This document shows positions 1 to 20,020 of a stretch of DNA of 64,000 nucleotides, piece after piece. A program made the translations under genes and the position numbers. Origin of the DNA: Gammaproteobacteria bacterium (lineage in GTDB: Bacteria > Pseudomonadota > Gammaproteobacteria > GCA-001735895); the NCBI GenBank assembly GCA_030066335.1, contig JASJBV010000001.1:9065-73064 (forward strand), written 5' to 3'. The notes below the pieces were generated by a model that was given only the letters and a program-made list of their open reading frames with translations, was not told where the DNA came from and did no database searches. Every line of letters starts with the position of its first letter. Position 1 is the first letter of the stretch.

Positions 1-270
1 TACCCCGCGCAATGCGCGGCGGCTGGCTTCATGTAATTCCTTCAGCGGAGCCCGGATCTCGGCAAACAATTTCTCACCCTGGGCGGTCAGTCTGACCCGC
101 TTATCCAGCCGATCGAACAGGGGGAAGCCGAGAATAGCCTCCAGGTTGCGAATCTGGTGGCTGACCGCGGAAGGCGTTACATAGAGTACCTCAGCGGCCT
201 GCTGAAAACTCAGCTGTTCGGCCGCCGCGGCGAATGTATTGAGGTTGTTGAGGGGTAAACGGGTTTGCAT
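1..270 (-). CDS. LysR-family transcriptional regulator, N-terminal HTH part (5' partial at window edge; start ATG at 268-270)
   Basis: Reverse translation gives MQTRLPLNNLNTFAAAAEQLSFQQAAEVLYVTPSAVSHQIRNLEAILGFPLFDRLDKRVRLTAQGEKLF..., a classic LysR wHTH signature; the ORF runs off the window. Confidence 0.75.
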   Translation of the reverse strand, partial: MQTRLPLNNLNTFAAAAEQLSFQQAAEVLYVTPSAVSHQIRNLEAILGFPLFDRLDKRVRLTAQGEKLFAEIRAPLKELHEASRRALRGV

Positions 271-293
271 ACAGATGAGGATATCTCATCTGT
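271..293. promoter_or_regulatory. Perfect 23-bp palindrome ACAGATGAGGATATCTCATCTGT directly upstream of the LysR start, in the divergent promoter region
   Basis: Seen in sequence; the position fits a LysR-type autoregulatory operator between divergent genes. Confidence 0.4.
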
Positions 294-373
294 AACAAGA
301 GATTAAGTCCTTTGATCAAATAATTTACCAGACCTATGATTACACCATATTCAATTCAGACGAGGACTAGAAA

Positions 374-613
374 ATGTTAGCTAAAACCAAACAAAACAAA
401 GGATCAAACGATACCTTTGATGCCGGCATTGATTACCAATACTATGATAACCGGGCTCGAAACCTGCGTTCTGAGGCTGCCTGGGGATGGCTCAAGGGTT
501 TATTTACAGAACAGCATTTCTCACTCATGAAGATCCGCAACAGCGTTTTCGACCAGGTTGAATCGATGCTTGACAGTATTCGCTGCAGGCTGCGCCCCTG
601 CCCACAGGTCTGA
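374..613 (+). CDS. small hypothetical protein (79 aa) divergent from the LysR regulator
   Basis: ORF with plausible divergent arrangement; no recognisable motif (MLAKTKQNKGSNDTFDAGIDYQYYDNRARNLRSEAAWGW...). Confidence 0.35.
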   Translation: MLAKTKQNKGSNDTFDAGIDYQYYDNRARNLRSEAAWGWLKGLFTEQHFSLMKIRNSVFDQVESMLDSIRCRLRPCPQV

Positions 614-634
614 GCCGGCGCGGTTTATCCCGGA

Positions 635-2806
635 CTAAAAGACCTTTTTGCGACCCGATTCTGAGGTTTTTGGCAGCTTTTCTGTCAGGTAGACCTCCGC
701 TTCGTCCACCGGCAGCGGATGACTCAGGTGATAGCCCTGCGCCATGTCACAACCTAGATCACCCAAGCACTTTAACTGCGCTTCCTGTTCCACCCCCTCG
801 GCGATGGTGTTCAGTTTCAAGCTTTTTGCCAGGGCGATGATGGCATTGACGATCTCGGCATCGGTTGGATTCTCATCGACATCCTGGACAAAGCTGCGAT
901 CGATTTTCAACGTATCCAACGGGAATCGTTTCAGGTAACTCATCGATGAGTAACCGGTACCAAAGTCATCAATCGACAGGCTGACGCCAAGGCTTTTGAG
1001 TTCATTCAGGTCCTTGATGGTTTTCTCGACCTGTTGCATGATCATGCTCTCGGTCATCTCGAGTTCGAGATACTGCGGATCCAGCCCGGCGTCATCCAGC
1101 GTGGCCTCGACCATGTGAATAAATCGCTGCTGGCGGAATTGATAGCTCGACAGGTTGACGCTCATCTTGATCGGCGCCAGCCCGGCCTGCTGCCACAGCA
1201 CCGCCTGCTGACAGGCAGTTTGTAACACCCAGTCGCCGATTGGCATAATCAGGCCTGATTCCTCGGCGACCGGAATGAATTCAGCGGGCGGAATCAATCC
1301 CCGGTCAGGGTCACGCCAGCGTAACAGGGCCTCCACCCCGACCACCGTTCCTTGCTCAATCGATAATTGCGGCTGGTAGTAAAGCATCAGCTCATCTTTT
1401 TCCAATGCATTGCGCAGCTTGGTGCGCAAACCGAGTCTTTCCTTGGAATTCTTGTTCAGGCGCGAAGTGTAAAACTGTAACCGGTTTTTGCCTTCCTTTT
1501 TGGCCTGAACCATGGCGATATCGGCATGTTTGAGTAGCGTCTCCACCGATTCACCGTCCTCGGGATAGGTGGCGATCCCCATACTGGCGGTGATGAAATA
1601 TTCCTGGCCCTCGATGACCATGGTCTGGCCCAGTCGTTCGAGTACACACTGGGCAAATTTTTCCAGCTGCTGCTTGTCGGTATAACTGTCCAGCAAAATA
1701 GCGAACTCATCATCACCTAAACGTGACAGAGTGCTGGATGATGCTCTTTCCTCTCTGATCAAACTATCGCTGGTACGTAAATATTGCGCCAGGGTCCGTG
1801 AAATCACCTTGAGCAAGACATCACCGATATCATGCCCGAGGGTGTCGTTCAAGCGCTTGAACTCATCCAGGTCGAGATACATCAGGGCGACTTTTTTCTC
1901 AGCTTCAGCAGCGACCTCGATTGCCTGTTGGGTGATCTGTTTGAAATGCTCCCGGTTGGGCAGCCCGGTCATCACATCAAAATAGGCCAGTTGATGTATT
2001 TTTTCCTCGGCCTGTTTGCGTTCACTGATATCCTGGATGGTCCCCTGGATACAAATGGGTTCTCCCGCCGCTGACATTAACGCTTCACCCTGGGTGTGGA
2101 TCGAGCGAATGCTGCCATCCGGCAAAAAGATGCGATGATCAATCTTATAAGGTTCACCGTCGGTCATGGCGTTATTCATCACCTGCCTGACCTTATCCCG
2201 GTCCTGTGGATGGCACATGCTGATGAACTCAAGAAAATCTATCTTGACCTGTCCGGGTTGCAGACCGAATATCTGGTAAACCTGATTGGACCAGTGAAAC
2301 TTGTTTTTCTTGATCTGCCATTCCCAGTTTCCCAGGCGTGATATCCGTTGCGCCTCGGACAGTCGATTCTCACTTTTGCGTAATGCAATGAAGGCCTGGC
2401 TGGCTTTTAGAATGTAGAGTATTCGGTGATTGAGGATCGGCCAGTTGACCGGCTTGGTGATGAAATCGGTGGCATCCACTTCGAACGCACGCATGATCGA
2501 CTCATGATCATCAAGCCCGGTTATCAGCATAATCGGGATATCCTTGCCCTCGGCTAACTGGCGGATTTTTTCACAGGCCTCGAACCCATCCATTACCGGC
2601 ATCTTGATATCCATGATCACCAGGTCTGGTTTTATCTGTTTGAACAGGATCAGGGCTTCGGCACCATTTACCGCCTCGTGCACGTTCATGTTGATCTGGG
2701 TCAGGGTTTCATTCAACATCAGCCTTTGGGCTGGGTCATCGTCGACCACCAGCACGACATGCCTTTGTAATGTTATATCTCGATCAAGCATTGGCACAGA
2801 GTTCAA
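635..2806 (-). CDS. response regulator with REC-PAS-GGDEF(degenerate GDDEF)-EAL domains (c-di-GMP phosphodiesterase type)
   Basis: N-term REC (VVLVVDDDP...[11 protein letters not shown]), [16 protein letters not shown] in place of GG[DE]EF, EAL block [10 protein letters not shown]; last gene of the SBP-HK-RR operon. Confidence 0.85.
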
Positions 2807-5666
2807 TTTCTTTGCTTAGCGCGGAACAGGCCATATGGTATGCGGATTCGAGGTCATCCAGCAACTTGTGTGCAGCCTCCAGGGTCTGCTCTCTGCCAAA
2901 TTGCTCCAGTTCCCTGCTCAGCTCGGAAACCCTCATCACGCCAAGGTTGGCACTGCTCGATTTAAGGCTGTGCGCCGCTTCCTCCAGCGCTTTGGCATCA
3001 CCGCTCTCGATCGATTGCCTGATCGCCTGCATCAGCATCGGTGAATCATTGAGGTAAATATCGATCACCTTTTTCAATAAATCCGGCGCGCCGGGCCGCT
3101 GCATCGCGCGGATTTTTTCCAGCGAGTCCTGCTGCAAAGGATTTACCGCATCAGCTTCTGTAACCGCAGCAGACGGTTGCTGATCAGCATCTACTTGTTG
3201 CGAAGCGACCGGGGCGCCCAGCCACTTGGTCAGGACTGCCCACAATTGCTGCTGATCGAATGGTTTGCTCATATAATCATCCATGCCCGCGGCACTGCAC
3301 TCCTGCTGAATGCCTTTTTGCACATTGGCGGTCAGGGCGATGATCGGCATATGCCGCTGCTGCGGCGCATCCGCCGAGCTGTGGTATCTTCTGATTTCGC
3401 TGGTGGCCTGGAAGCCATCCATGACCGGCATCTGGCAATCCATCAGTACCAGGTCGAAATCTTCGCGCAGCGTCGCTTCCACCGCCTGTTCACCATTATC
3501 AACCACGGTAACCCGACAGCCGAGGATTTCCAGCATACTCAAGGCGACCTCCTGGTTCACCGGGTTATCCTCGGCTAACAGAACATGCGCATGCAGTGGC
3601 GAGTCAGCGGCATGGGCAAGCCTGGGTTCGGTGATATCCTCAGTCGGTTCGGGGATGTTGATGACGTTGGTCAGGCAGTCGTAGAGAGCTCTTTGGCGGA
3701 CCGGTTTATTCACATAGTAATGAATTCCGGCGGCCTTGGCGCGCTGGGTCTCTTCATCGAATGCAGCTGAACTCAGCATCACCATGCGCTTGGGTGAGAT
3801 CTCCGGGTCATTTTGAATTTGCTCAGCCAGTTCTATGCCATCCATGTTTGGCATGTGCCAGTCGAGGATGATCAGTTCATAGGGATCTCCCTTGCGCTCC
3901 GCTGCGCGAATGATCTCCAGGGCCTTGTCGCCGCTGTCAGCAATGCCATCGATCATGCCCCAGGCATTACATTGATTATGCAAAATTTCCCGGTTGGTTG
4001 GGTTGTCATCCACGATCAATACGCGCACAGCATCGAGCTCACGGGTAAATTCGGTGATTGCATCGACCGGTTCCGCTACCGGTAAATCCAGAGTGAAATG
4101 GAAGTTGGAACCCTTGCCCAGCTCACTCTCTACCTCCAGTTTCCCGCCCAGGGCAGCAACCAGCTGGTGCGAGATGGCGAGACCGAGACCGGTGCCACCG
4201 AATTTGCGCGTGGTTGAACTATCCGCCTGGGAGAAAGATTCAAAGATGCCATTCTGCTGTTCCCGGGTCATACCGATGCCGGTGTCTTCAACCTCAAAGT
4301 GCAGGGTCAGGGTTTCTGCGGATTCCTGCAGCTTGCTCAGGCGCATGACAATTTCACCAACCTCGGTGAACTTGATGGCATTGCCAATCAGGTTGATCAG
4401 AATCTGGCGGATACGGTTTTCATCGCTGCTGACCATCATCACCGGATCCAGCGGCAATACCGGGGTTAGGTCGAGGCCCTTGTTGTGCGCGCGTTCAGCG
4501 AGAAATTCAGCGGTATCCTCGAGCGTGATACGCAGATCAAAATCGCGCTGCTCAAGCTCCAGTTTGCCGGCTTCGATCTTGGAAAAATCCAGGATGTCGT
4601 TAATGATCGCCATCAAGGTATCACCGGAACGCAGAATGGTCTGGGCAAAATGCTTTTGCCGTCCACTCAGCTCACTGGCCAGCAACAATTCGGCCATCCC
4701 CAGCACGCCATTCATCGGGGTGCGGATTTCATGACTCATGGTCGCCAGGAATTCACTCTTGGCGCGACTGGCCGCCTCGGCTGCTTCTTTCGCATCCTTC
4801 AGGTTACGGGTGCGCTCCTCGACGGTTTGCTCGAGGCTGTTACTGTATTCAATCAGTTGTTCGCGATTTTGCGACAACTTACTGTGCATGCTGCTGAAGC
4901 TCTTGGCCAAGTCGCCCAGTTCATCATTACGCGCAATGTCGATTTTGACACTATCATCGCCTTCACCGATTCGACGCGCAAATTCGGTCAGGCGGGTAAT
5001 CGGCCGGGACAGGCTGTTGGATACCCAGACCGCCAGTAACAGGGCCAGGATGAATAGTCCCAGGGTAATCAGCAACAACACGTAAAGGCTCTGGTTTTCA
5101 CCCCGCTGCTTGATTTGCAGCAGACGTTCATTGACCTCGGCGATATCCTCCATCACTCCGCTTAACGAGAAACCGAGGCGGATGCGGCCTATCTGGGTGT
5201 CTTCGCTGATCATCAGCGGCATCGAGTAATCGATGAAATAATTGGTCTCCTGGATCAGAAACTTATCGGATTTCCCGGCCCTTATCGCAACCGGGTCTTC
5301 AAGCCGCTGACCGAATGTCGGAATTTCATCTATGCCGTCATGAACGACCTTTTCCTCGTTATCCAGCACATAGAAATAAATCACGTCCTCCTGGTTCAGC
5401 GCGGTCTGGGAAATTTCAAATATCGCCTGGATGTCGTAGTCGTATACCGGGTTGATCAGGTTTTCGGCAAGCAGGCGGGTCATGGTCTCGCCACGCTGAT
5501 GCAGTTTACTCATCAGGCGCTGCTTCATTTCCTGTGCCGTGACCTCTGACATATCCTCGCCATGGCGCTGAAAATTGATCAGCAGTGCACCCGCCAACAA
5601 CGCGATGTTGAAAAACACCAGCGCCACGATGGCGAATGCATATTTATTTCTGAGTGGAAATCTCAC
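2784..5666 (-). CDS. hybrid sensor histidine kinase (TM-periplasmic domain-HAMP-HisKA-HATPase-REC-REC-Hpt)
   Basis: H-box [12 protein letters not shown]-box GTGLGLAI, two DxxxD/K receiver regions ([13 protein letters not shown]..., [13 protein letters not shown]...), C-terminal Hpt ([11 protein letters not shown]); ATGA overlap with upstream SBP gene. Confidence 0.9.
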
Positions 5667-6616
5667 AACCCGAGACGTTCCTCAACCCCGGGCTTCAGAC
5701 CTCGTGCACGATCTATACCCGCCTGGATCGAGTCATCGATAGGATCGAACTGGGTGGTCTTCTGGTAGGCCTTCATCGCCGCCCGGGCATTTTCGTCATC
5801 CTTGGCCGCGAGCAACACCGATATCAGGCGCTGCTTGACCTCGGGGCGCAGGCCCTTGCGCACCACTTCGATGGCCCGCGGAAATGATTCGCTCTGATAA
5901 AACACCTTCATATCGTTCTTGAATGAACCCGGATTATGATCTCCTTTCTCCCAGTCGAGATTGGAGTAGGCACCGGCATTTACCAGCCCCTTGTGTACCC
6001 AGGTAGACATATTGATTTCGTCTTTACCAAATACATAGCCTACCTCGTCACCGTCAACGCTATCCCGCGGTGATTCCAGGCGAACCAGCTCAAGTCCGGC
6101 ATCGAGCAGGATCGATGCCGGGATGAAAAATGCAGAAGTGGACCCCTCATCCTCAAAGGTGATGACCCGGCCCTTCAAATCCTGCAGTGACTCGATACCT
6201 GAATCTTTTCTGGTGAAAAATACCGAATGGTACTGGCCAACCCCTTTTTTATGCTTGACCAGAATGATCTCGGCACCGGCCTTGTCTTCGAGTTCAACCG
6301 ACGAGAACACGGTCTCAGTCACCCAGTCTACTTTACCCCGCTTCAGATAATTTATCATCTGTCGGTTGTCTTTCGCCATCAGCACCTCCACCCGGTCGAT
6401 ACCGAGGTCCTGCATGCGCTCGACCACGTAATCACCTATCGGCTTCAGGTATTTATAATGTTTCTTGGGATTTTTACTGATCTTGCCGATAACCAGGGTG
6501 CGCTCACGCTCGGCATCGGCGGCATGCGCCTCTGGTAGTGGGGAAACCAACATGCTCAGGCCAATTAACAGCCCGAACAAGGGTGTTGTCAGGGCAGATA
6601 TTTTGCTGGAATACAT
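5663..6616 (-). CDS. periplasmic PhnD/SsuA-like substrate-binding protein, partner of the downstream kinase
   Basis: Signal peptide (…[13 protein letters not shown]), PhnD-like fold motifs; start/stop overlap with kinase gene. Confidence 0.75.
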
Positions 6617-7032
6617 ACATTTCTCCTTGAAATTTAGCGGGATAATCTGGAAGTCGATCCGGCCTCGTTCAACCTGCTCGGCTTCGGTTTTTGTTGTTTT
6701 AAATCACTGCCAACATGCTTATCGGCAGTATCCGTTAACCTATGAGTATTGATTATAGAATGCACCTAAAAATATTCCGGGATTAGCGAATAATTGCATA
6801 TTGAAACTATCTCCCGTGAAATCCGCGTTCGCAAAGGGTTTTGCGGGGGTAATCGTGATGAATGCTTTACCCGTGAAGACCAGGCAGGAGCGGAAAAAGA
6901 AGAAGGGATCAATGACTGATCCCCTCGTGGTTGATGCCGGCTACACAGATTGATTCGTGTTGTTGAATCTGGCGGACCCGGTATTGGGGGCTCATCCTGC
7001 TCTCGCAGGATAAGCAACCCCGTGTTCATCAC

Positions 7033-7476
7033 CTAATAGTAAATGCACATTTTTGTTTGCAGGCAGTTTCCATGCTGGTTCTGCTGGCCGCAGCTGAAGC
7101 GATGGACCCCGCGGGTGATTTCCCCATCCCAGTAAACCGATAACTTGGTACGCTCTTGCTGTGGTTCACTATCCGGACCCCGGGTGCTCTCACGCCGCTT
7201 GGTGGTATCGCCTACCTGAATCGCGACCTGGGCAAAAGCGGTGTATCCGGCACGATCATCGAAGTCGACAAACGAGTCGCACTCGATGATCACATTCTGG
7301 GTCTGGACGATGAACAGGTCCTTTTCCACCCGGCAGGCATTGCCTGCGACCGGATCATCCCGGTGTTTGGATTTAAAACAGTCAACGGTCACGTCCTGTC
7401 TCTGCGCATAGGCAGACGGCAGCAACAGCAGTGAACCGAGGATAACGATGAAGATCGATTTGATGATATTTTTCAT
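7033..7476 (-). CDS. hypothetical secreted protein (signal peptide, several Cys)
   Basis: Internal start MKNIIKSIFIVILGSLLLLPSAYA chosen over the longer ORF; no family recognised. Confidence 0.45.
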   Translation of the reverse strand: MKNIIKSIFIVILGSLLLLPSAYAQRQDVTVDCFKSKHRDDPVAGNACRVEKDLFIVQTQNVIIECDSFVDFDDRAGYTAFAQVAIQVGDTTKRRESTRGPDSEPQQERTKLSVYWDGEITRGVHRFSCGQQNQHGNCLQTKMCIYY

Positions 7477-7697
7477 GTCTCTGTCCCTTGAGTTTTGCTG
7501 ATAAATATCATTCAAACACAAGACGCTGAGCAATAAATTGACGGTGATCAACAGACGAACACAGAGCCCGGGCCAGCCTGAAAATGGTCGTGCTACGGCT
7601 AGGACAGGTGTCTGCGGTGGCTTGTCTTAGCTAGATGATGAGTTTATCCTTGATCGACAACCAATAATGCAGTCCTCATCACCAACCGGAGCGAATC

Positions 7698-8495
7698 ATG
7701 AAAATCTATAAACTACTGTTTTCCCCGCTCATCCTGATCGGCTTGCTGGCGAGCCAGGTTGCCCAAGCGGCGGTGGTCACCGAAGAAATTACCTACCGCG
7801 ATGGCGATACCGAGATGATCGGTTATCTCGCCTATGATGATCGCAACATGTCGCCACGCCCCGGCATTCTGATCGTCCATGAATGGTGGGGGCATAACGA
7901 ATATGCGCGGATGCGGGCACGTATCCTGGCCGCGATGGGTTATACCGCGCTGGCGGTGGATATGTATGGCGATGGCAAAACCGCCAATCACCCCAGTGAT
8001 GCCGGTAAGTTTGCCGGTGCGGTGGGCGGCAACATGCCGCTGGCCAAGGCCCGGTTCGAGGCGGCTTTGCAAACCCTGAAATCACACCGCACCGTGGAGA
8101 CGGACAATATCGCGGCGATAGGTTATTGCTTCGGCGGTAGCATCGTCCTCAACATGGCGCGCCTGGGCGTGGACATCGACGGGGTAGTCAGCTTCCATGG
8201 CGGCCTCACGACCGGCAATCCCGCCCAGTCCGGTATGGTGAAAGCCAGGGTCCTGGTATTCAACGGTGAAGCGGACCCGCTGATCAAGCCGGAAGATGTC
8301 ACCGGATTCCAGCAGGAAATGGATGCTGCCGGTGTTGATTACAAACTGATCAACTATCCCGGCGTGCTGCACAGCTTCACTAACCCGCAAGCGGATCAAT
8401 TCGCCGAGGCCTTCAATTTGCCGGTAGCTTACGATCAGTATGCAGATGAGGATTCCTGGCGGCAGATGGGTGATTTCTTTCGCGAGATCTTCTGA
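7698..8495 (+). CDS. dienelactone hydrolase family protein (secreted)
   Basis: Signal peptide, HEWWG, GYCFGG nucleophile elbow, C-terminal His region typical of the DLH family. Confidence 0.85.
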   Translation: MKIYKLLFSPLILIGLLASQVAQAAVVTEEITYRDGDTEMIGYLAYDDRNMSPRPGILIVHEWWGHNEYARMRARILAAMGYTALAVDMYGDGKTANHPSDAGKFAGAVGGNMPLAKARFEAALQTLKSHRTVETDNIAAIGYCFGGSIVLNMARLGVDIDGVVSFHGGLTTGNPAQSGMVKARVLVFNGEADPLIKPEDVTGFQQEMDAAGVDYKLINYPGVLHSFTNPQADQFAEAFNLPVAYDQYADEDSWRQMGDFFREIF

Positions 8496-8524
8496 CCCAC
8501 AGCGGTTAGGCCGGATAGATTGAC

Positions 8525-8552
8525 CAAACCCATCATTATGATGGGTTTTTTA
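8525..8552 (+). terminator. rho-independent terminator AAACCCATCATTATGATGGGTTTTTT
   Basis: GC-containing stem with T-run immediately after the hydrolase stop. Confidence 0.6.
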
Positions 8553-8668
8553 TCTGAACATCCTGCTCCTTGCTCGAGTTGGATGAGCTGTCAATCCACT
8601 GCGAGCAGACAGGCTGGATTAATTGTAAAAACGCCGCAAAATCAGCAGCTAGCTGGAGTACACCGATT

Positions 8669-9190
8669 ATGAATCTATATTTCAGACTGCTGTTGATCCT
8701 GTTGAAAAGTCTGTCCCCACCCCGCATAGAGCCACTGGCTGAAAGCCGCTGCCGTTTCCGGGCCTGGCCGCTGGACTGCGACATCAACCTGCATCTTACC
8801 AATGCGCGCTATTTCGCCCTGTGTGACCTGAGTCGGATTTACCTGATGGGCCAGACCGGTATCCTGTTCAAGGCGATCAAACGCAAATGGCTGCCCGTGG
8901 TGCAGGCGCAGGAAGTCAGGTATTTCAAACCGATCAATCCCTTCCAACGCTTCGATGTCGCAACCAGGATCACCTACTGGGATGACAAGTACTGGTACAG
9001 CGAGCACAAGTTCACGGTCGGCGACAGGCTATGTGCCATCCTGCAGGTGCGGGGCGTGTTCGTGCATGGACGCAATATCATACCCATGGGCGAGATACTG
9101 GCGCTCACCGGTAAAGACATCGACCCGCCCGAGAAACCGGAAAATATCGAATCCTGGCATAACCTGATTGCGGGCAGGGACAAGGCGTAG
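8669..9190 (+). CDS. hotdog-fold acyl-CoA thioesterase-like protein
   Basis: Internal ATG (MNLYFRLLLILLK...) after the terminator; length and composition resemble 4HBT_2-type thioesterases. Confidence 0.5.
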   Translation: MNLYFRLLLILLKSLSPPRIEPLAESRCRFRAWPLDCDINLHLTNARYFALCDLSRIYLMGQTGILFKAIKRKWLPVVQAQEVRYFKPINPFQRFDVATRITYWDDKYWYSEHKFTVGDRLCAILQVRGVFVHGRNIIPMGEILALTGKDIDPPEKPENIESWHNLIAGRDKA

Positions 9191-9261
9191 ATTGGCTCAC
9201 GCTAAACCGTATGATGAAACCACCATCAAGCTCGGCAAAAGTCATTACATAAGCTATTAAT

Positions 9262-10287
9262 ATGGGTGTATATCAAGAAAATTTTAATAACAACAGCATG
9301 TCTTTATACCGGGTCATAATTTTATCTATTTTTCTGCTGTCACTCGTTGGCTGTAGCAACCAGGAATCCGCGCAAAAATCCCAACTCACCATCGGTCTGG
9401 CGACGAACAATCCGAATGGCCTGAAGAATATCGAAGGCTTCCGTCAGGCTATGGCCAGGCTGGGATACATTGAAGGTGAAAATGTCAGCTATCAATTTGC
9501 CGGGACATTTACCCGGGGAGAGGACTTATCAACGAGTCTGAGCGAGATGATCAACACCCCGGTAGACCTGATCTTCACTGCCGGTACCGGTACCGGTGTG
9601 ATGGCGCATAAACTGACCAGCGCTGAGCAGATACCGGTGGTGTTTGGTGTTATTGCTGACCCGGTGATGGCGGGGGTGCTGGATAACCTTGAACGTCCCG
9701 GTGGCCACATCACCGGCATCATGATCAGCCCCAACCAGTCCCAACGCTTGAAGTACCTGGTCGATATGGTGCCGGGTATCCAGAATATATACATCCTGCA
9801 CGATCCCGATAACAGTGCGGCAACCAGTGCCTTATCCCAGGTCAGGCAATATGCCTCCAGGCTTGGGGTCAAGCTGGACATCCATCAGGCGCATACACCG
9901 GAACAGGTCGAACAAGCCCTGGAGTCACTCCCGTCCAATATCGATGCGATATTCATGTTGCCGGATAGCACGATCAACCGGCATCAGAGCAAATTACTGC
10001 AAATAGCCATTGACCGAAAACTGCCGGTTTCCGGACCGAGTATCATTCAAGCGGAAAAGGGTGCCTTGTTTGCTTATGGGATCGTCCATCACGAGGCCGG
10101 CGCGCAGGCAGCCCCAATCGCCGACATGATACTCAAGGGTTCGAAACCGGGTGACATGCCCATCCAGACCGCAGATTTTTACCTGGGCATCAACATGGCA
10201 ACCGCAAAAAAAATCGGCATCAACATACCTGACCATTTCCTGCGACAGGCACACAAGGTCATCAGGGATAATTCCATGTCAAAATAA
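9262..10287 (+). CDS. ABC_sub_bind-type (TM1135/BMP-like) periplasmic substrate-binding lipoprotein, partner of the downstream kinase
   Basis: Lipobox LVGCS; sequence shape of PF04392-like SBPs; 9 bp upstream of hybrid kinase gene. Confidence 0.75.
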   Translation: MGVYQENFNNNSMSLYRVIILSIFLLSLVGCSNQESAQKSQLTIGLATNNPNGLKNIEGFRQAMARLGYIEGENVSYQFAGTFTRGEDLSTSLSEMINTPVDLIFTAGTGTGVMAHKLTSAEQIPVVFGVIADPVMAGVLDNLERPGGHITGIMISPNQSQRLKYLVDMVPGIQNIYILHDPDNSAATSALSQVRQYASRLGVKLDIHQAHTPEQVEQALESLPSNIDAIFMLPDSTINRHQSKLLQIAIDRKLPVSGPSIIQAEKGALFAYGIVHHEAGAQAAPIADMILKGSKPGDMPIQTADFYLGINMATAKKIGINIPDHFLRQAHKVIRDNSMSK

Positions 10288-10296
10288 CCTGGACCC

Positions 10297-13200
10297 ATGT
10301 TTTCCAGTCTACGCGCACATCTGATCTTTCTGGTATTACTGGCGGCGGTGATACCTGTGCTCATCGCCGGCATCTTGGTTACCCAGCGTAGTAATACCTA
10401 CCTCGAACAGCAAAGCATACGAGCTCTCGAGGAACAATCCGCGGGCCTTGCCGATAGAATCAAGGGATTCTTTGACCTTCGATTAAATGAGCTCGAGTTA
10501 CTGGACAAGACATTTGGCTTCAATACGCTAAGCCGGCAGGATCAAACCAACGTCCTCACCAGCCTGCTGCAACAACAGCATTATCATGGTTTCAGCATCG
10601 TTGAACCCGATGGGACAGAGATGCTTAAACTGGCCCGAGACCAGGCCTACCCGGAAAACCATATCATCAACTGGTCAACTGACTCGCTGTTCCAGCAAAC
10701 TGTCAGCAGCCGGGAAACCCAGTTCGGCTTAATCCAGTTTGATCGAGAAATTCGCGAACCCTTGATGACGATCATCATGCCCCTGTTCAATTATCAGAAT
10801 GGTCAACTCGATACCCTGCTGGTAGGCAGCATCCGCCTGAAAAAATTGTGGGAGATCTTATCGCAGATCAACAAGTCCAGGGATACGACCAGTTTTGTCA
10901 CCGACCAGACTGGAAGGATAGTGGCCCATGAAAACCCGGTAGTTGCGATAAGAGGTCAATATTACGATCGCCAGATAACGGATAGTAATTCCGGTATCGA
11001 GATTGGCCCGGAAATAATTGCCGTGACCAGGTCTGTTTACCTCGGCGATAAACAGTTTGTTATCGTCACCGAAAAACCTGCGTCAAGCGTATACGCCCTG
11101 AGTCGGGATAACATCAAAGCCACCCTGATCACTTCGTTGATCCTGATGTTTTTTATTGTGGCGATCACGGTTTTGCAGTGGCGCAATATCCAACGACCCA
11201 TAGCGCGCCTGTTAAATGCAATCAGGGAAATTGAACAGGGGAATTTCAACAGGCCGCTGGGCGAGGCAGGATTGACTGAGCTGGACCAATTGACAGATTC
11301 GTTCAATCAAATGAGCCATAGTCTGGACGCCACGATGGAAGCGTTGAGAGAAAAAGAAAGGATCGCCAGAGAAGCCAATCTTTCCAACGAGGCTAAAAGC
11401 ATTTTTCTTTCCAACATGAGCCATGAGATCCGTACACCGATGAACGGTGTGATCGGCATCACCGAACTGCTGCTCGATAGCAAACTAGACCAGGATCAGT
11501 ACGGCAAGGTCAGGTTGATCAAGCAAAATGCCGAATCCCTGCTGAACCTAATCAACGATATCCTCGACCTGTCAAAGATCGAGGCAGGCGAACTAAATTT
11601 CGAAATCTATGAATTCGATTTAAATCGGTTGCTGGCGGAAATAGTGTCAGTCATCGCTTTCAGTGCACAAGCCAAGGGCCTTGAATTAATCTGCCCGGCC
11701 GCCTGGCTGGACCAACACTGGTATCACGGTGATCCGGGGCGCATCCGCCAGGTATTGATCAACCTGTTAAGTAATGCGATCAAATTCACCGAATCGGGTG
11801 AGGTCGTCCTCAACATCGAGATCGAGGCGGTCTCTGACCAACAGGACGCCCTGCACTTCAGTGTCACCGACAGCGGCATCGGTATCGAACCGCAACAGCT
11901 TGCTCATTTATTCGACCGCTTTTATCAGGCCGATGACTCGCCGGCTCGTATCTATGGCGGTTCAGGTCTTGGCCTGGCCATCAGCCAGCAATTGGTAAAC
12001 CTGATGGGAGGCGAAATCAACGTGCAGAGCCAGCCCGGGATGGGTTCAAGCTTTTCCTTCACGATTCAACTGGAAACCGCTGCCGCAGCGGAAAACCTGG
12101 TGTTGCATACCTCCGAACTGGAGCAGCTGAGAACACTGGCAGTCTCTGCCAATCCACGAGTGCTCGCCTTGCTGGACGATATATTCGGCCACTGGTCGCT
12201 ACACCATCAGCAGGCAGATAGCGCCGAGGCGGCTGGTAGTTTGCTGCAACAGGGCAAAGATTCTGACCAGGCATTCGATATCATCCTGATCGATGATGGC
12301 TTGCCCGGCAATGATACGCTCGAACTGTGTGAAGGCATTCAACAGGATCATGAACTCAAGCAGATGCATCTCATTTTGATGCATGCCCTGTCGCAACCAG
12401 TTGATCGGGACAGGCTATCGGCCGCCGGATTCACCGCCCTGCTGGATAAACCTATCGATCAGAACAAGCTGTTGCAAACCCTGTTGCGGGTAGTCAGGGG
12501 TGAAACCAGTCTCGAAACCGCCAGCCAAACCGATAGTGCGGAGAGCTATCAACGCTTCAACGCAAGCATCCTGGTCGTCGAAGATAACCTGACCAACCAG
12601 CAGGTTATACTGGGTATGCTCAACCGACTCGGCATAGAGGCAGACCTCGCCCAGGATGGCGCAGAAGCATTGGATAAGTTGAAAACGAATACTTACGACC
12701 TGGTGTTTATGGATTGCCAGTTACCGGTCATAGATGGATATGAGGTGACCCGCCAGATTCGCTCGGTGGATTCGACGGAGATAAATGCTAACGTACCCAT
12801 TGTTGCGATGACGGCCAATGTGATGCGAAGTGATATAGAGCACAGTCTGAAAGTCGGCATGAATAGCCACCTTGGTAAACCCATTGAATCGAGAAAGCTC
12901 AAGCAGATACTACTCAGTTGGCTGCCTGAACACTGCATTCCTGACCGGGACCAGGCAGCAGACGATGATGCCAATTTTGATCAACAGGATCAAAAGCGAC
13001 AGGCGCAGACATTTGATTATGCAAAATTGAGTCAGCATATGCTGAACGATGAACATTTGATGAAGACAGTCGTCTCGACATTCGTCGACGACATACCCGT
13101 ACAAATGCAAAAATTACGCGAGCTGGTCGAATCAGACCAGCGCAACGACATTCGAAAGCAGGCACATAAAATCAAAGGTGCCTGCAGTAATGTCTGTGCA

Positions 13201-13347
13201 ACGAGTATGCAGCAGCTCGCTGTTGAATTGGAAGTAAATGCGCTGCAAATTGAGGATGACCAATTAGGCCAGCACTTCGAATCTCTCGCGACCGCCTGTA
13301 GCGAACTGGTTGCAGAATTAAAAACTATCGTATTAGAAAGGGTGTAG
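10297..13347 (+). CDS. hybrid sensor histidine kinase (periplasmic sensor-HAMP-HisKA-HATPase-degenerate REC-REC-Hpt)
   Basis: [27 protein letters not shown], receiver [13 protein letters not shown]...[11 protein letters not shown], Hpt [12 protein letters not shown]. Confidence 0.9.
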
Positions 13348-13811: not shown

Positions 13812-16226
13812 CTACTGCATTGCTATCTGCAGAGAGATCGTTTGCGGTGGTAAACACAGCCGGTCATTGCAGGCCTGCAACTGCAGACTCAATGGCAGAA
13901 TTCGTGTCGCCTGGTTGCGTTGATCGATTATTATACGGAACTGAAGATCATCTTCGAACAGGGACATCGGCTCGTCCTGAAATCCAAGTACCCGGGTTTG
14001 ACCAGCTGGATAGTTGACATCCTGTATTATCCAGTCCCGGTTTGTACTATCTAATGTTAACCGGGTAGGAATGAGATTATCCTGCAGTGGTTGATCGGAA
14101 TTGATATGCCAACCATCGGCAATGAACAGATCAACAACGACTCTGTCGTAACCCGCCTGTCTGGCCTGTATACGAATGCCACCGAGGGCTGCGTATTGCA
14201 GAGGGCCTGTCTCTCCTGTTCGTGCATCACTGGCGCTGGCGAGCATGTAAGCGAAATCATCCGGACTTTGATTAACAACACCAGCAAAAGCAGCCAGTGT
14301 CGCTGTGGCCCTTTTTCCATAATCCCGATCACCGGTCCGTTCCTGTAGCATGTGTAACACCCTAACGGCCATGGAATTACCTGAGGGCATACGGTCATAG
14401 TCGGCAGCATCGCGATATCGACCCATCGCGGTGACCTGCTCACGCTGACTACTCATATAAAACCCACCGCGTTGACTGTCCCAGTAATGCTGCAGCATGC
14501 TGTCTGCGAGTTGCCCGGCCCGCTCCAACCAGCTCATATCAGCGGTTGCATCGTATAACCGCAACAGGCCCTCGGCATAGTAGGCATAGTCCTCCTGCCG
14601 GGCTTCAATCGAGGCACGTCCGTCAAGATTGATCCGCCACAGCTGTCCTGGTTTGCGCCACTGCTGCTGCCAGATAACTTTAGCCGCACGCACGGCCGCA
14701 TCGGTGTAACGCGGTTCATCGAGCAGCATCCCGGCCTCGGCCAGGGTACTGATCATCATGCCATTCCAGGCGGTAATGATTTTTTCATCACGCAGAGGAT
14801 GCACTCTTTGTTCCCGCGCCCGGTAGAGCTGTTGCAGGATGGGATCCAGGCGCTTGTTGAGCTCGGACAATGACGTGCCCTGCCGCTCGGCGAACTCGGG
14901 CAGCGACAATGGCAGAAACAGGATATTGAGGTCTCCATCATAACCCTCCTCGCGGATGTCAAACAGCTTGATCACCAGCTCAGCATCCTCTGCTGACAGG
15001 CTGGTGCGGATCTCGGCAGGACGCCAGAAGAAGAACTTACCTTCTTCCCCCTCGCTATCGGCATCGGTCGCGGAATAAAAGGCGCCCTGCTCCGAGGTCA
15101 TGTCACGCAGGGCATAGTCGAGGGTCTGAACGGCAACCCGCCGAAACAGCGGATTGCCGGTCAGATACCAGCCTCGCAGGTAAATCCGCGCCAGGTGCGC
15201 CTGGTTGTAGAGCATTTTTTCGAAGTGCGGGGTATGCCAGTAGCTATCGACGGAATAACGATGAAAACCACCACCTACATGGTCATAGATACCGCCCCTG
15301 CTCATCGCATCCAATGTATGATCGAGCAGCTTGAGGATGGCCGGGTCGGGATCACGCATGGCCTGGTTGAGCAGCAGGAATAATCTGGGCTCGTTGGGAA
15401 ACTTGGGCCTGCCGCCGAAGCCGCCGTTTTCCGTGTCATAGTCAGCGAGCATATTGCTGATCGCCTGGTCCAATGCAAGATCGCTAATGCTGGCGGCAGT
15501 TGTTTGCGATTGATTGATCTGTCCGACCCCGACGGCGATTCGCTCCGCCTCGGCCAACAGCATCGTTTGTTGTTCGGTCCATTGCCGGGCAATCTGCTGC
15601 AGCAGTTCGAGAAACTGCGCCGGTCGATAATAGTTACCACTGAAGAAAGGTTTTCCGTCCGGGGTTAGAAAACTCGAAATGGGCCAGCCACCATCGCCGG
15701 TCACGAAGATCAGTGCATTGAGATAGACCCGGTCAATATCGGGCCGACGCTCGCGATCCACCTTGATCGCGATAAAATTGCGATTGATAAAATCAGCCAC
15801 GGCGCCATGCTCGAAGCTTTGTTTCTCCATCACGTGACACCAGTGACAGGTGGAATAACCAATCGACAGTAACAGCGGCTTGTTTTCCGCCCTGGCCCTG
15901 GCAAAAGCCGCCTCACCCCAGGCGTGCCAGTCCACCGGGTTGTGCGCATGCTGGATCAGGTAGGGGGAATCCTCGAGGATCAGGCGATTGGTATATAGCG
16001 GCTTGCCATCCTGGGCCAGATGTTCGGTTCGTGGCACATAGTCTGGTGGTTTGGCATCCAGCGCCTGGCGAACTCGCCTGTCCAGTTTGGCCGGCCGCGC
16101 GGGTATGTAAGCCGCAACATCCCGTGTTTGCGGCAGCATATCATTGTCATTGGTCGCTGCCGATAGCTGACCAGGCAAAAGCAAAGCCAGTGGGATACAA
16201 ACCAGCGCTGTTTTCAGTCTTTTCAT
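13812..16226 (-). CDS. secreted thioredoxin-domain protein of the DUF255/YyaL family with C-terminal extension
   Basis: Signal peptide; [19 protein letters not shown] thioredoxin-like CxxC block followed by (alpha/alpha)6-like region. Confidence 0.8.
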
Positions 16227-18299: not shown

Positions 18300-19250
18300 G
18301 TGGCGCCGGCCTGGTTAGCGAGAAAAAGCATGCTATCCCGAGCTCAAGCAGCTGATGATAGTCAGAGCGGTGCAGATGATTTCGAGGCAGCCGATATCCC
18401 GGCTGACATACCCGCTGTCGCCGGTACCAGCTTCAAACCGGAACACGCAGCAGACATAGAGCGCGATCCCGGTGAGGTTGCCTGGTTCGAAGTCCACCCC
18501 GAGAATTACATGGTAGCCGGCGGCCCAAGACTGGCCCAGCTGGAAGCACTGCGGGCTGACTTTCCGATATCCCTGCATGGTGTCGGTATGTCGCTTGGCA
18601 CCGGCGAACTGCCGGATGCGCAACACCTGCAAGCCTTGCGTGAGCTGGTCAATCGTTTCCAGCCCGGCCTGGTTTCCGAACACCTGGCCTGGTCGTCGCA
18701 CGACGGCCTGTACCTGGCCGACCTGCTGCCCAGCGCATTGACCCGGTCTATGCTTGACGGCGTGGTCAATGCAATCGACAAGACCCAGCAAACCCTGGGC
18801 CGGCAAATCCTGATTGAGAACCCAAGCTCCTACATCCCGCGGCCGGACAGCTGGCTGCCGGAAATCCAGTTTCTCAACGAGCTCGCCCAGCGTAGCGGCT
18901 GCGGCCTGCTGGTCGATGTCAACAATGTCTTTGTCAGCGCCCATAACCTGAAATTCAATGCCAATGATTACATCGACGCGGTCCCCGGCGAGGCTGTCGG
19001 TGAGATCCACCTGGCCGGTCACAGTGTCGACAACAACGACGGCGACCCCATTTTAATCGATAGCCATGGTGCCACGGTCAGCGACGAGGTGTGGGCACTC
19101 TATCAGCGCTTAATCAGCCGGATCGGCCCCCGGCCCACCCTGGTTGAATGGGACAACGATTTGCCCGCCTGGTCAGAGTTACGCGCTGAAGCCCAGCGCG
19201 CCAATCAGCATATTGATCAGGTCATCCAGGTCCAGCGAGAAGCGTCATGA
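18300..19250 (+). CDS. bufB: DUF692 multinuclear non-heme iron oxidase (MNIO, MbnB-like)
   Basis: …WFEVHPENYM…LHGVGMSLG…LVSEHLAWS…LIENPSSY…IHLAGHS motifs of DUF692; start uncertain (GTG 18300 or ATG 18330). Confidence 0.85.
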   Translation: MAPAWLARKSMLSRAQAADDSQSGADDFEAADIPADIPAVAGTSFKPEHAADIERDPGEVAWFEVHPENYMVAGGPRLAQLEALRADFPISLHGVGMSLGTGELPDAQHLQALRELVNRFQPGLVSEHLAWSSHDGLYLADLLPSALTRSMLDGVVNAIDKTQQTLGRQILIENPSSYIPRPDSWLPEIQFLNELAQRSGCGLLVDVNNVFVSAHNLKFNANDYIDAVPGEAVGEIHLAGHSVDNNDGDPILIDSHGATVSDEVWALYQRLISRIGPRPTLVEWDNDLPAWSELRAEAQRANQHIDQVIQVQREAS

Positions 19251-20020
19251 GCGCGCGACCTGAACTCGCCTATCGCCAGCAATTCACCCAGGCACTACTG
19301 GCCCGGGCAGCCGATGCCCATCCAGCCAATCTCGCTCCGCATGAGGCACGTCGATTCCGGGTTTATCGCAACAATGTGCATACTGCACTGATCACCGCGC
19401 TGGCCGATGCTTACCCGGTAATTCAACGACTCGTTGGAGAAGAATTTTTCGCCGCGATGGCGCGTGAGTTTTTCCTGCTGGAACATGAACGGGAATCGAC
19501 TCTGGCACTTTATGGTGCAGATTTTGCCGATTTCATCGAACAATTTACCCCGGCTGCTTCACTACCCTATCTGGCCGATGTCGCACGCCTGGAACGCACC
19601 AGGCTCGAGGCACTGCATGCGGCTGACGCCGCTGTAATCGATGCATCCGCATTGCCCACTGATGGCGAACAGCTGCTGAACATGACCTTTGAGCCACACC
19701 CGGCCTTACGCCTGCTGAGTTCAGCTCATCCGGTCGTCAGTATCTGGCTGGCCAACCAGGCTGATGAACCACAGAACATCATCACCGCCAGCGCCGAATT
19801 TGCATTGATTACCCGGCCTAGGTTCGTGGTGAACACGCTGCTGCTGGACCAGGCTACCGGTCGATTTACTCGGCAGCTGATGCAGGGGCATACGCTGCAA
19901 CAGGCCTATACCAATACATCCAGCATCGCCGGCGAATTCGATATAGGCGTGGCTTTTTCCCAGTTACTCGAAGCCGGCGCCTTTACCGATGCCGCCACAT
20001 ACCAGGAGGATACAAAATGA
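19247..20020 (+). CDS. bufC: DUF2063 protein, partner subunit of the MNIO
   Basis: N-terminal FRVYRNNV motif typical of DUF2063; ATGA overlap with bufB stop. Confidence 0.8.
   Translation: MSARPELAYRQQFTQALLARAADAHPANLAPHEARRFRVYRNNVHTALITALADAYPVIQRLVGEEFFAAMAREFFLLEHERESTLALYGADFADFIEQFTPAASLPYLADVARLERTRLEALHAADAAVIDASALPTDGEQLLNMTFEPHPALRLLSSAHPVVSIWLANQADEPQNIITASAEFALITRPRFVVNTLLLDQATGRFTRQLMQGHTLQQAYTNTSSIAGEFDIGVAFSQLLEAGAFTDAATYQEDTK

Follow-up and report, generated by a model that had tools for sequence, protein, structure and literature searches.

Within a 64,000-nucleotide stretch of gammaproteobacterial DNA (contig JASJBV010000001.1, positions 9,065 to 73,064; hereafter, the window), we identified a three-gene operon that probably encodes an XAC2383/XAC2382-type bipartite receptor of the periplasm, coupled to a phosphorelay that controls the breakdown of cyclic di-GMP (c-di-GMP). 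In the list of open reading frames (ORFs) of the window, the three genes lie head to tail on the minus strand. They encode a secreted substrate-binding protein (SBP; 317 aa, 5663..6616), a hybrid sensor histidine kinase (960 aa, 2784..5666) and a REC-PAS_3-GGDEF-EAL regulator (718 aa from its first ATG, 635..2791). An earlier note on this DNA had described three genes with these domains, and the ORF list and Pfam searches located all of them.

In the mechanism that we favor, the secreted SBP would bind a small periplasmic anion that most likely contains phosphate, for example orthophosphate, pyrophosphate, polyphosphate or a nucleotide, and would then dock on, or release, the sCache-like domain of the kinase. 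The signal would run through the second transmembrane segment (TM2) and HAMP into the kinase core, and phosphate would pass from H312 to a receiver aspartate (D602 or D743), on to H899 of the Hpt domain and finally to D61 of the regulator. Phosphorylation of the regulator's receiver would set the activity of its EAL phosphodiesterase and hence the cellular c-di-GMP level.

The binding protein is predicted to be a signaling SBP

A hydropathy scan of the SBP revealed a single N-terminal hydrophobic segment, consistent with a signal peptide (aa 1-32, 6521..6616, minus strand) that ends at a signal-peptidase site between PEAHA and ADAE. The protein was previously described as a PhnD-like periplasmic binding protein. 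It is indeed a secreted member of Pfam Phosphonate-bd (2.7e-39), but it is not a PhnD orthologue, as it scored 94.9 bits with TIGR03431 (PhnD) against a cut-off of 261.1. Its score with TIGR01098, which covers the phosphate/phosphite/phosphonate SBP subfamily, was 104.5 against a cut-off of 112.05.

The best sequence match of the SBP in the PDB was to entries 5ub3/4/6/7 ('phosphate-binding protein', E=1e-63), with PtxB, HtxB, ArrX and PhnD trailing at 5e-11 or worse. Entry 5ub3 is XAC2383 of Xanthomonas citri according to a table in PMC10942540, and the PDB entry descriptions likewise give this name. The SBP and XAC2383 are 41% identical over 260 ungapped residues. An AlphaFold (AF2) model of the SBP, built with 18 homologues, had a predicted local distance difference test score (pLDDT) of 91.3 and superposed on XAC2383 with a template modelling (TM) score of 0.90 and a root-mean-square deviation of 2.3 Å (Foldseek). 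ArrX and PtxB were next best, with TM scores of 0.7-0.78 and deviations of more than 4 Å. We rejected membership among the transporter SBPs PhnD, PtxB and HtxB because the protein falls below the curated cut-offs and no permease or ATPase gene is adjacent. From its sequence, the SBP is thus predicted to be a signaling SBP of the XAC2383 family, and not a PhnD orthologue or a transporter subunit.

The SBP is strictly linked to an sCache-like partner

We next scanned a profile of the SBP, made from the 18-homologue alignment, against one genome per prokaryotic species. This yielded 555 related stretches, and the locus counts given here refer to the best 80 of them (these loci, and the further contigs compared below, carry numbers with the prefix L). 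A homologue of the kinase periplasmic domain (aa 31-195) was encoded directly after the SBP gene in 80/80 loci. In 72 loci the ORF directly 3' of the SBP gene matched this domain (phmmer E 1e-7 to 1e-41); the other 8 lie on contigs that end early, and there tblastn found the domain at the expected place. As in the window, where the SBP stop and the kinase start share GTGA (a 4-nt overlap at 5663..5666, minus strand), the junction between SBP and partner was mostly a 4-nt overlap.

The partners differed in what follows the sCache-like domain. A HAMP-(PAS)-GGDEF-EAL output was present in 49 loci, from Pseudoxanthomonas and its relatives and from tubeworm and lucinid symbionts, while 19 loci had a histidine kinase output and two had a kinase fused to the regulator. 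Because the Pseudoxanthomonas SBPs are ~60% identical to XAC2383, the locus set spans the characterized clade. Divergence of the SBP was correlated with divergence of the periplasmic domain (Mantel r=0.93, 0/999 permutations), a result that either co-evolution or plain co-inheritance would give. The family assignment, the unbroken linkage and the lack of adjacent transporter genes all support the proposal, made before this analysis, that the SBP is a co-sensor for the kinase. The same SBP/sCache input is now seen with kinase outputs and with a full phosphorelay ending in a predicted phosphodiesterase.

The SBP could instead be primarily a subunit of an ATP-binding cassette (ABC) importer for phosphonate, phosphite or phosphate that is encoded elsewhere, in which case its place beside the kinase would reflect co-regulation or a dual role, as for ChvE, the ChiS partner CBP and GltB. 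We consider this very unlikely. It would be consistent with the Phosphonate-bd assignment, with retention of the S-T-S loop of PhnD and PtxB, and with public annotation of the protein as 'phosphate/phosphite/phosphonate ABC transporter substrate-binding protein'. XAC2383-type SBPs are routinely mislabelled as phosphonate/phosphate transporter subunits. SBPs with dual roles in transport and signaling are also known (PMC8050422), and the visible genome amounts to 64 kb only. However, the SBP scores below every transporter-equivalog cut-off, its linkage to an sCache protein is strict whatever the output, and its nearest relative is a signaling SBP. Furthermore, no ABC permease gene (BPD_transp_1) was found within 8 kb in any of the 80 loci, and ABC ATPase genes occurred only at distances of at least 3.3 kb, in 10/80 loci. 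Neither a permease nor an ATPase gene stands beside the SBP operon in the window, and each of the two ABC transporters found elsewhere along the window comes with an SBP of its own.

The hybrid kinase carries a predicted complete phosphorelay

The kinase (minus strand) is composed of a transmembrane segment, a periplasmic domain, a second transmembrane segment, HAMP, HisKA-HATPase, two REC domains and Hpt. Hydrophobic segments at aa ~10-31 and ~193-216 flank the ~160-aa periplasmic domain in a hydropathy scan. HAMP (aa 214-265, 4872..5027) is followed by a HisKA and HATPase_c core (aa 302-529, 4080..4763) with H312, N429 and the G1 and G2 boxes (DTGIG, GGTGLG). Receiver 1 (aa 546-669, 3660..4031) retains D553, D602, S632 and K654, receiver 2 (aa 695-811, 3234..3584) retains E699, D743, T779 and K801, and the Hpt domain (aa 867-943, 2838..3068) has H899. 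Pfam matches, hydropathy and intact phospho-sites thus bear out the earlier description of a hybrid kinase with its own periplasmic domain, two receivers and an Hpt. By these residues, the kinase is predicted to carry everything that a phosphorelay needs, from the H-box to Hpt. Both receivers look competent in the window and in Hpt-bearing relatives; in the kinases of L003 and L004, receiver 1 is decayed and Hpt is missing.

TorS was the top-scoring NCBIfam model for the cytoplasmic part of the kinase, with the likeness limited to the cytoplasmic core. We rejected orthology to TorS, BarA, LuxQ or ArcB because the scores fell short of the NCBIfam equivalog cut-offs (score vs cut-off: TorS 516.5 vs 676.5, BarA 487.6 vs 890, LuxQ 381 vs 1200).

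The periplasmic domain (aa 31-195, 5082..5576) is sCache-like (PDC-type), and we propose that the SBP docks there. Pfam sCache_3_2 matched this domain in 20/29 family members, with a best value of 2.5e-11; the match of the window domain itself (7.5e-5) is under the Pfam gathering score. A family profile of the domain gave weak PDB matches to the sensor domains of GacS, DcuS and CitA. We relied on these Pfam and profile matches for the assignment because the AF2 model of the domain was too poor for a fold search.

Direct ligand binding is known for sCache/PDC domains such as those of DcuS and CitA, which the family profile weakly resembles. The kinase might therefore sense its ligand in its own sCache pocket, with the SBP acting only as a scavenger or buffer of that compound and making no contact with the kinase. 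However, linkage in 80/80 loci, the 4-nt overlaps and the correlated divergence form the pattern of an obligate pair, and XAC2383 reportedly binds the Cache domain of XAC2382 physically. We give direct sensing little credence. A receptor made of SBP and sCache-like domain together is the reading that we carry forward.

The regulator is a predicted phosphodiesterase with a degenerate GGDEF motif

The regulator is encoded by a longest ORF of 635..2806 (minus strand; TTG start, 723 aa), within which lie the ATG at 2791, used here for numbering, and an alternative GTG at 2755. A hydropathy scan found no hydrophobic segment. Its receiver (2432..2755), with phospho-acceptor D61, is followed by PAS_3 (Pfam, 2036..2299), GGDEF (1481..1987; Pfam 8.6e-44) and EAL (716..1423; Pfam 2.2e-77). 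The EAL domain has the full catalytic set, namely E-x-L-x-R, N, E-x-x-E, the loop 6 motif DDFG(T/A)GYSS, K, E and Q, with EALLR at 1316..1333. We aligned 121 sequences, namely the window protein and its 120 nearest homologues among the matches listed, and found the EAL catalytic residues and the receiver residues invariant in 121/121. The closest solved relatives of the EAL domain are those of MucR, MorA, DosP and RbdA. On the strength of its catalytic residues, the EAL domain is predicted to be a competent phosphodiesterase.

The A-site of the GGDEF domain is degenerate, although RxxD is kept, and the signature reads GDDEF (in LSRLGDDEF; codons GGT GAT GAT GAG TTC at 1703..1717, minus strand), while VEALLRW is intact. 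Direct reading and the A-site alignment thus agree with the earlier observation that the second Gly is lost and EALLRW is retained. The variant Asp codon (1712..1714) differs from a Gly codon by one G-to-A transition (GGT to GAT). Among the aligned sequences GGDEF occurred in 101, TGDEF in 13 and other variants (AGDEF, DGDEF, GSDQF, ASDEF) in 5; GDDEF was seen only in the window protein and an identical database copy. Because GDDEF is a one-base change that is unique among the matches listed, it represents a recent loss and not a family trait. An ~11-residue insertion ahead of the GGDEF signature is common to the whole regulator family.

A change from GGDEF to GEDEF inactivates cyclases (bioRxiv 10.64898/2026.03.20.713172), and in CC3396, where GEDEF occurs naturally, the domain binds GTP and stimulates the adjoining EAL domain but has no cyclase activity (PMC4823724). 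Because these GEDEF variants are inactive, we predict a phosphodiesterase-only enzyme here, with cyclase activity probably lost in this organism together with the second Gly of the A-site. By analogy with Caulobacter PdeA, the degenerate GGDEF domain would most likely act as a scaffold or as a module that senses GTP. The earlier suggestion that a degenerate GGDEF domain was kept as a regulatory domain therefore fits this organism but not the family, in which 101/121 sequences have GGDEF. The predicted phosphodiesterase-only state is recent and specific to this lineage, and the wider family may be bifunctional.

We also considered whether the regulator is a working or bifunctional cyclase-phosphodiesterase, either because GDDEF is still active or because the gene really reads GGDEF and the change is an artefact or a minor variant. 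This is unlikely, though it has several points in its favor. All aligned homologues of >56% identity among the matches listed are within the GGDEF majority, as are the kinase-regulator fusions described below, which have canonical RxxD spacing; the window protein retains the counterparts of the Asp that binds metal, the Asn and Asp that bind guanine and the Lys that binds phosphate; the change is a single transition; and activity has been seen with some non-canonical motifs, such as AGDEF (bioRxiv 10.64898/2026.03.20.713172). Against an artefact, however, the sequence is identical in NCBI, ENA and Logan assemblies, and against activity, an acidic second residue is what inactivates the tested cyclases and is found in CC3396. 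We therefore retain a phosphodiesterase as the predicted output of the relay.

Kinase and regulator occur as natural fusions

Two genomes encode the kinase and the regulator as a single ORF, of 1,665 aa in Thiorhodococcus minor (L005:8885-13882) and of 1,655 aa in a Chromatiales metagenome-assembled genome (L002:8858-13825). Both are ordered sCache, HAMP, HisKA, HATPase, REC, REC, Hpt, REC, PAS, GGDEF, EAL, and are colinear with the window kinase followed by the window regulator (42% identity for L002 and 39% for L005). These natural fusions in two genomes indicate that kinase and regulator are functionally linked. Together with the intact phospho-sites and the EAL residues, they support the earlier proposal of a multi-step relay with c-di-GMP hydrolysis as its output, which we predict, from sequence, to run His-Asp-His-Asp. 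Each of the two fusion genes is followed by a gene for an HDOD-domain protein.

The same genes were found unfused in the orthologous contig L083, in the order porin, SBP, kinase, regulator, with identities to the window of 56% for the kinase (over 935 residues), 64% for the SBP match and 56% for the regulator match. Both gene overlaps of the window were called alike on this contig (4 nt and 8 nt).

Input and output units appear to have recombined

The nearest homologues of the regulator (61-64% identity, among the matches listed) stand behind other input sets. At L081 and L086 the input is a TonB-dependent receptor, a YfiR-like DUF4154 protein and a CHASE8 kinase. L088 has, in order, a TonB-dependent receptor, an ABC_sub_bind SBP, an sCache_4 kinase, two regulators and an HDOD protein, and L089 has a TonB-dependent receptor and a kinase. 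The cytoplasmic 745 residues of the window kinase are 58-63% identical to those of the L081, L086 and L088 kinases, whereas the periplasmic parts are unrelated (11-19%). Compared with the SBP-type kinases of L083 and L002, by contrast, the cytoplasmic part is 54% and 47% identical and the periplasmic part 59% and 41%. Because the identities differ by part in this way, the input (SBP and sCache domain) and the output (kinase core and regulator) have separate histories, and the two units appear from these alignments to have recombined near TM2/HAMP. Such an arrangement points to modular construction from an outer-membrane channel, a periplasmic binder, a kinase and a phosphodiesterase.

More tentatively, the window system may be one version of a wider, undescribed envelope-sensing design whose parts are swapped at TM2/HAMP and whose SBP version reports an extracellular phosphate compound. 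The channel would be an OprO/P-type porin or a TonB receptor, and the binder an XAC2383-type SBP, an ABC_sub_bind SBP or a DUF4154 protein; these would be joined to a hybrid kinase with a matching periplasmic domain and to a REC-PAS-GGDEF-EAL regulator, with an HDOD protein after it in some cases. If so, the porin would admit pyrophosphate, polyphosphate or a nucleotide such as ATP, and c-di-GMP turnover would respond; a sense for phosphate anions or extracellular nucleotides would then be common in marine sulfur-oxidizing symbionts and sediment bacteria. The open-access literature that we searched contained nothing relevant on a cassette of porin, SBP, kinase and c-di-GMP enzyme, or on one of DUF4154 protein, kinase and TonB receptor.

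The ligand is most likely a phosphate-containing anion

Three observations bear on the ligand. First, the S-T-S loop of the SBP (S159-T160-S161) aligns with the loop of XAC2383 and PtxB; E. coli PhnD uses this loop to hold the oxygens of the phosphonate. Second, the PDB descriptions for XAC2383 list chloride and ATP as bound. Third, 33/80 loci (L001-L012 and others; e.g. L003:2364-3671), which make up nearly all of the non-Xanthomonadales ones, have an OprO/OprP-type porin gene (Porin_O_P, 3.4e-75) immediately upstream of the SBP gene and in the same orientation. The porins OprP and OprO are phosphate- and pyrophosphate-selective. Because XAC2383 was crystallized with ATP, relatives often carry such a porin gene upstream and the S-T-S loop is conserved, we favor a phosphate-containing anion over a sulfonate as the most likely ligand class. 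The phosphonate or sulfonate proposed earlier is a weaker candidate on the ATP-bound structure and the 33/80 porin count, with SsuA-type sulfonate binders only remote matches of the SBP. As a frequent fourth gene, the porin of phosphate-selective type narrows the ligand search to phosphate-type anions.

The two closest relatives of the window locus (L090 and L092; SBP 86% and 77% identical) are also without a porin gene. Upstream of the window SBP gene is a gene for a 147-aa secreted, cysteine-rich protein (7033..7476, minus strand). Pfam gave no match for this protein, and six of its cysteines are invariant. Its gene is kept upstream of the SBP gene in L090 and L092 (76-77% identity), and the porin gene occupies exactly that place in more distant relatives.

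Points that weigh against the proposed receptor and relay

Several points count against the receptor and relay as drawn here. We infer the contact between SBP and kinase, the ligand, the sign of regulation, the receiver used and the enzyme activities. A single-sequence AF2 model of the kinase periplasmic domain had a pLDDT of only 37.7, and that sCache domain could itself bind ligand. With regard to the phosphate-type ligand, the porin gene is absent from the window operon, tblastn found no remnant of it in the window, and a Pho box search that tolerated up to 3 mismatches gave no match. The GDDEF call depends on a single base, found in assemblies that apparently derive from one sample.

The start of the regulator is also ambiguous. 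With the first ATG (2791) as start, the regulator gene overlaps the end of the kinase gene by 8 nt (ATGCTTGA, 2784..2791, minus strand), and an overlap of this length was also called in the related contigs L083, L081 and L088, but one public call for the identical sequence is a GTG 28 nt past the kinase stop. Because the public call uses this downstream GTG, coupling of kinase to regulator is likely rather than certain. Of the translational coupling claimed earlier for all three genes, the SBP/kinase part is thus borne out by the GTGA overlap, and the kinase/regulator part is likely only.

Comparison with known systems

The XAC2383-type receptor family was reportedly first described in Xanthomonas in 2018, by Teixeira et al. 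In that study, XAC2383 reportedly bound the periplasmic Cache domain of the membrane cyclase XAC2382 and inhibited it, XAC2383 is said to have preferred phosphate-containing ligands, and homologous SBP/Cache pairs with other output modules reportedly occurred in several phyla. The family is one of few cases in which an orphan binding protein is known to steer c-di-GMP signaling. The window system shares with XAC2383/XAC2382 the SBP family, an SBP gene followed directly by that of a membrane protein, the lack of transporter genes and an sCache-like partner domain homologous to that of the Pseudoxanthomonas partners. It differs in that the partner is a hybrid histidine kinase and not a cyclase, so that c-di-GMP would be reached indirectly, via a four-step relay to a separate regulator, and in that the predicted net effect is c-di-GMP degradation and not synthesis.

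Other systems resemble parts of this arrangement. In AioX-AioS-AioR and ArrX, a Phosphonate-bd SBP is likewise dedicated to a kinase with an sCache-like periplasmic domain (PMC8050422), but these SBPs are remote (E ~1e-6, 18-20% identity) and serve classical kinases with transcription-factor output in response to arsenic oxyanions. In TorT-TorS and LuxP-LuxQ, an orphan SBP co-senses with a hybrid kinase that has receiver and Hpt steps (PMC8050422); there, however, the SBPs are of the Peripla_BP type, the periplasmic domains are different and the output is transcriptional or through small RNAs. In NspS-MbaA, ScrB-ScrC and YfiR-YfiN, a periplasmic accessory protein governs a membrane c-di-GMP enzyme (PMC8050422), but does so directly on the GGDEF/EAL protein and without a phosphorelay. 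YfiR-YfiN has the further likeness that a YfiR-like DUF4154 protein replaces the SBP in the nearest relatives of the window kinase-regulator pair.

On the output side, PdeK/PdeR of Xanthomonas oryzae likewise combines a histidine kinase with a REC-PAS-GGDEF-EAL phosphodiesterase regulator, and XOC_2393, a close homologue, has the degenerate GGDEF motif GSDEM (PMC4823724). Unlike the window system, PdeK/PdeR is described with neither an SBP co-sensor nor an Hpt relay. Caulobacter PdeA (CC3396) similarly has an acidic residue in place of the second Gly (GEDEF) and an intact adjoining EAL domain (PMC4823724), but it is without a receiver, and the degeneracy in the window is a singleton among the matches listed. 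The window system is thus a known family joined to a known kind of output, a predictable combination of known modules with no new logic. Our additions are the figures for strict gene linkage, the natural fusions, the view that modules have been swapped, and the porin as a lead to the ligand.

Operon limits and neighboring genes

The SBP gene is preceded by a Shine-Dalgarno sequence (AAGGAG, 6623..6628, minus strand) 6 nt before its ATG. A terminator-like hairpin at 6902..6926 (minus strand), with an 11-bp stem followed by a T-run, lies after the gene for the 147-aa protein and delimits the transcription unit on its 5' side. In front of the SBP gene we also noticed a perfect TATAAT (6752..6757, minus strand) without a good -35 hexamer and an inverted repeat, ACTGCC-N12-GGCAGT (6706..6729). 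Judged by eye only, these elements (region 6704..6760) may be promoter and operator. A sigma-70 scan found nothing over background on the operon strand, and no Rfam RNA, riboswitches included, was found at E<=1 in 1..9300.

Beyond the 3' end of the operon, a small ORF (377..610, plus strand) without a Pfam match converges on the 3' end of the c-di-GMP regulator gene, and a LysR-family regulator gene (1..255, minus strand) runs past the window start.

Divergent from the operon and 2.6 kb away is a second SBP-kinase pair (9262..13347) with no adjacent regulator gene. It consists of an orphan SBP (ABC_sub_bind, PF04392; 9262..10287, plus strand) and a hybrid kinase (10297..13347, plus strand) of the order dCache_1-HAMP-HisKA-HATPase-REC-Hpt, whose first receiver is degenerate (VSAN for VDDN). 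The idea that this kinase is a close paralogue feeding the same regulator was unsupported, given 34% cytoplasmic identity and the degenerate first receiver.

Further along, an 804-aa protein (13812..16226, minus strand) has a DUF255/thioredoxin-like N-terminal part and a DsbD_N C-terminal part. Finally, a gene for an MbnB/TglH/ChrH-family enzyme (PF05114, 1.9e-96; 18300..19250, plus strand) overlaps that of a DUF2063 protein (19247..20020, plus strand), a pairing typical of modification clusters for ribosomally synthesized and post-translationally modified peptides (RiPP-type, methanobactin-like).

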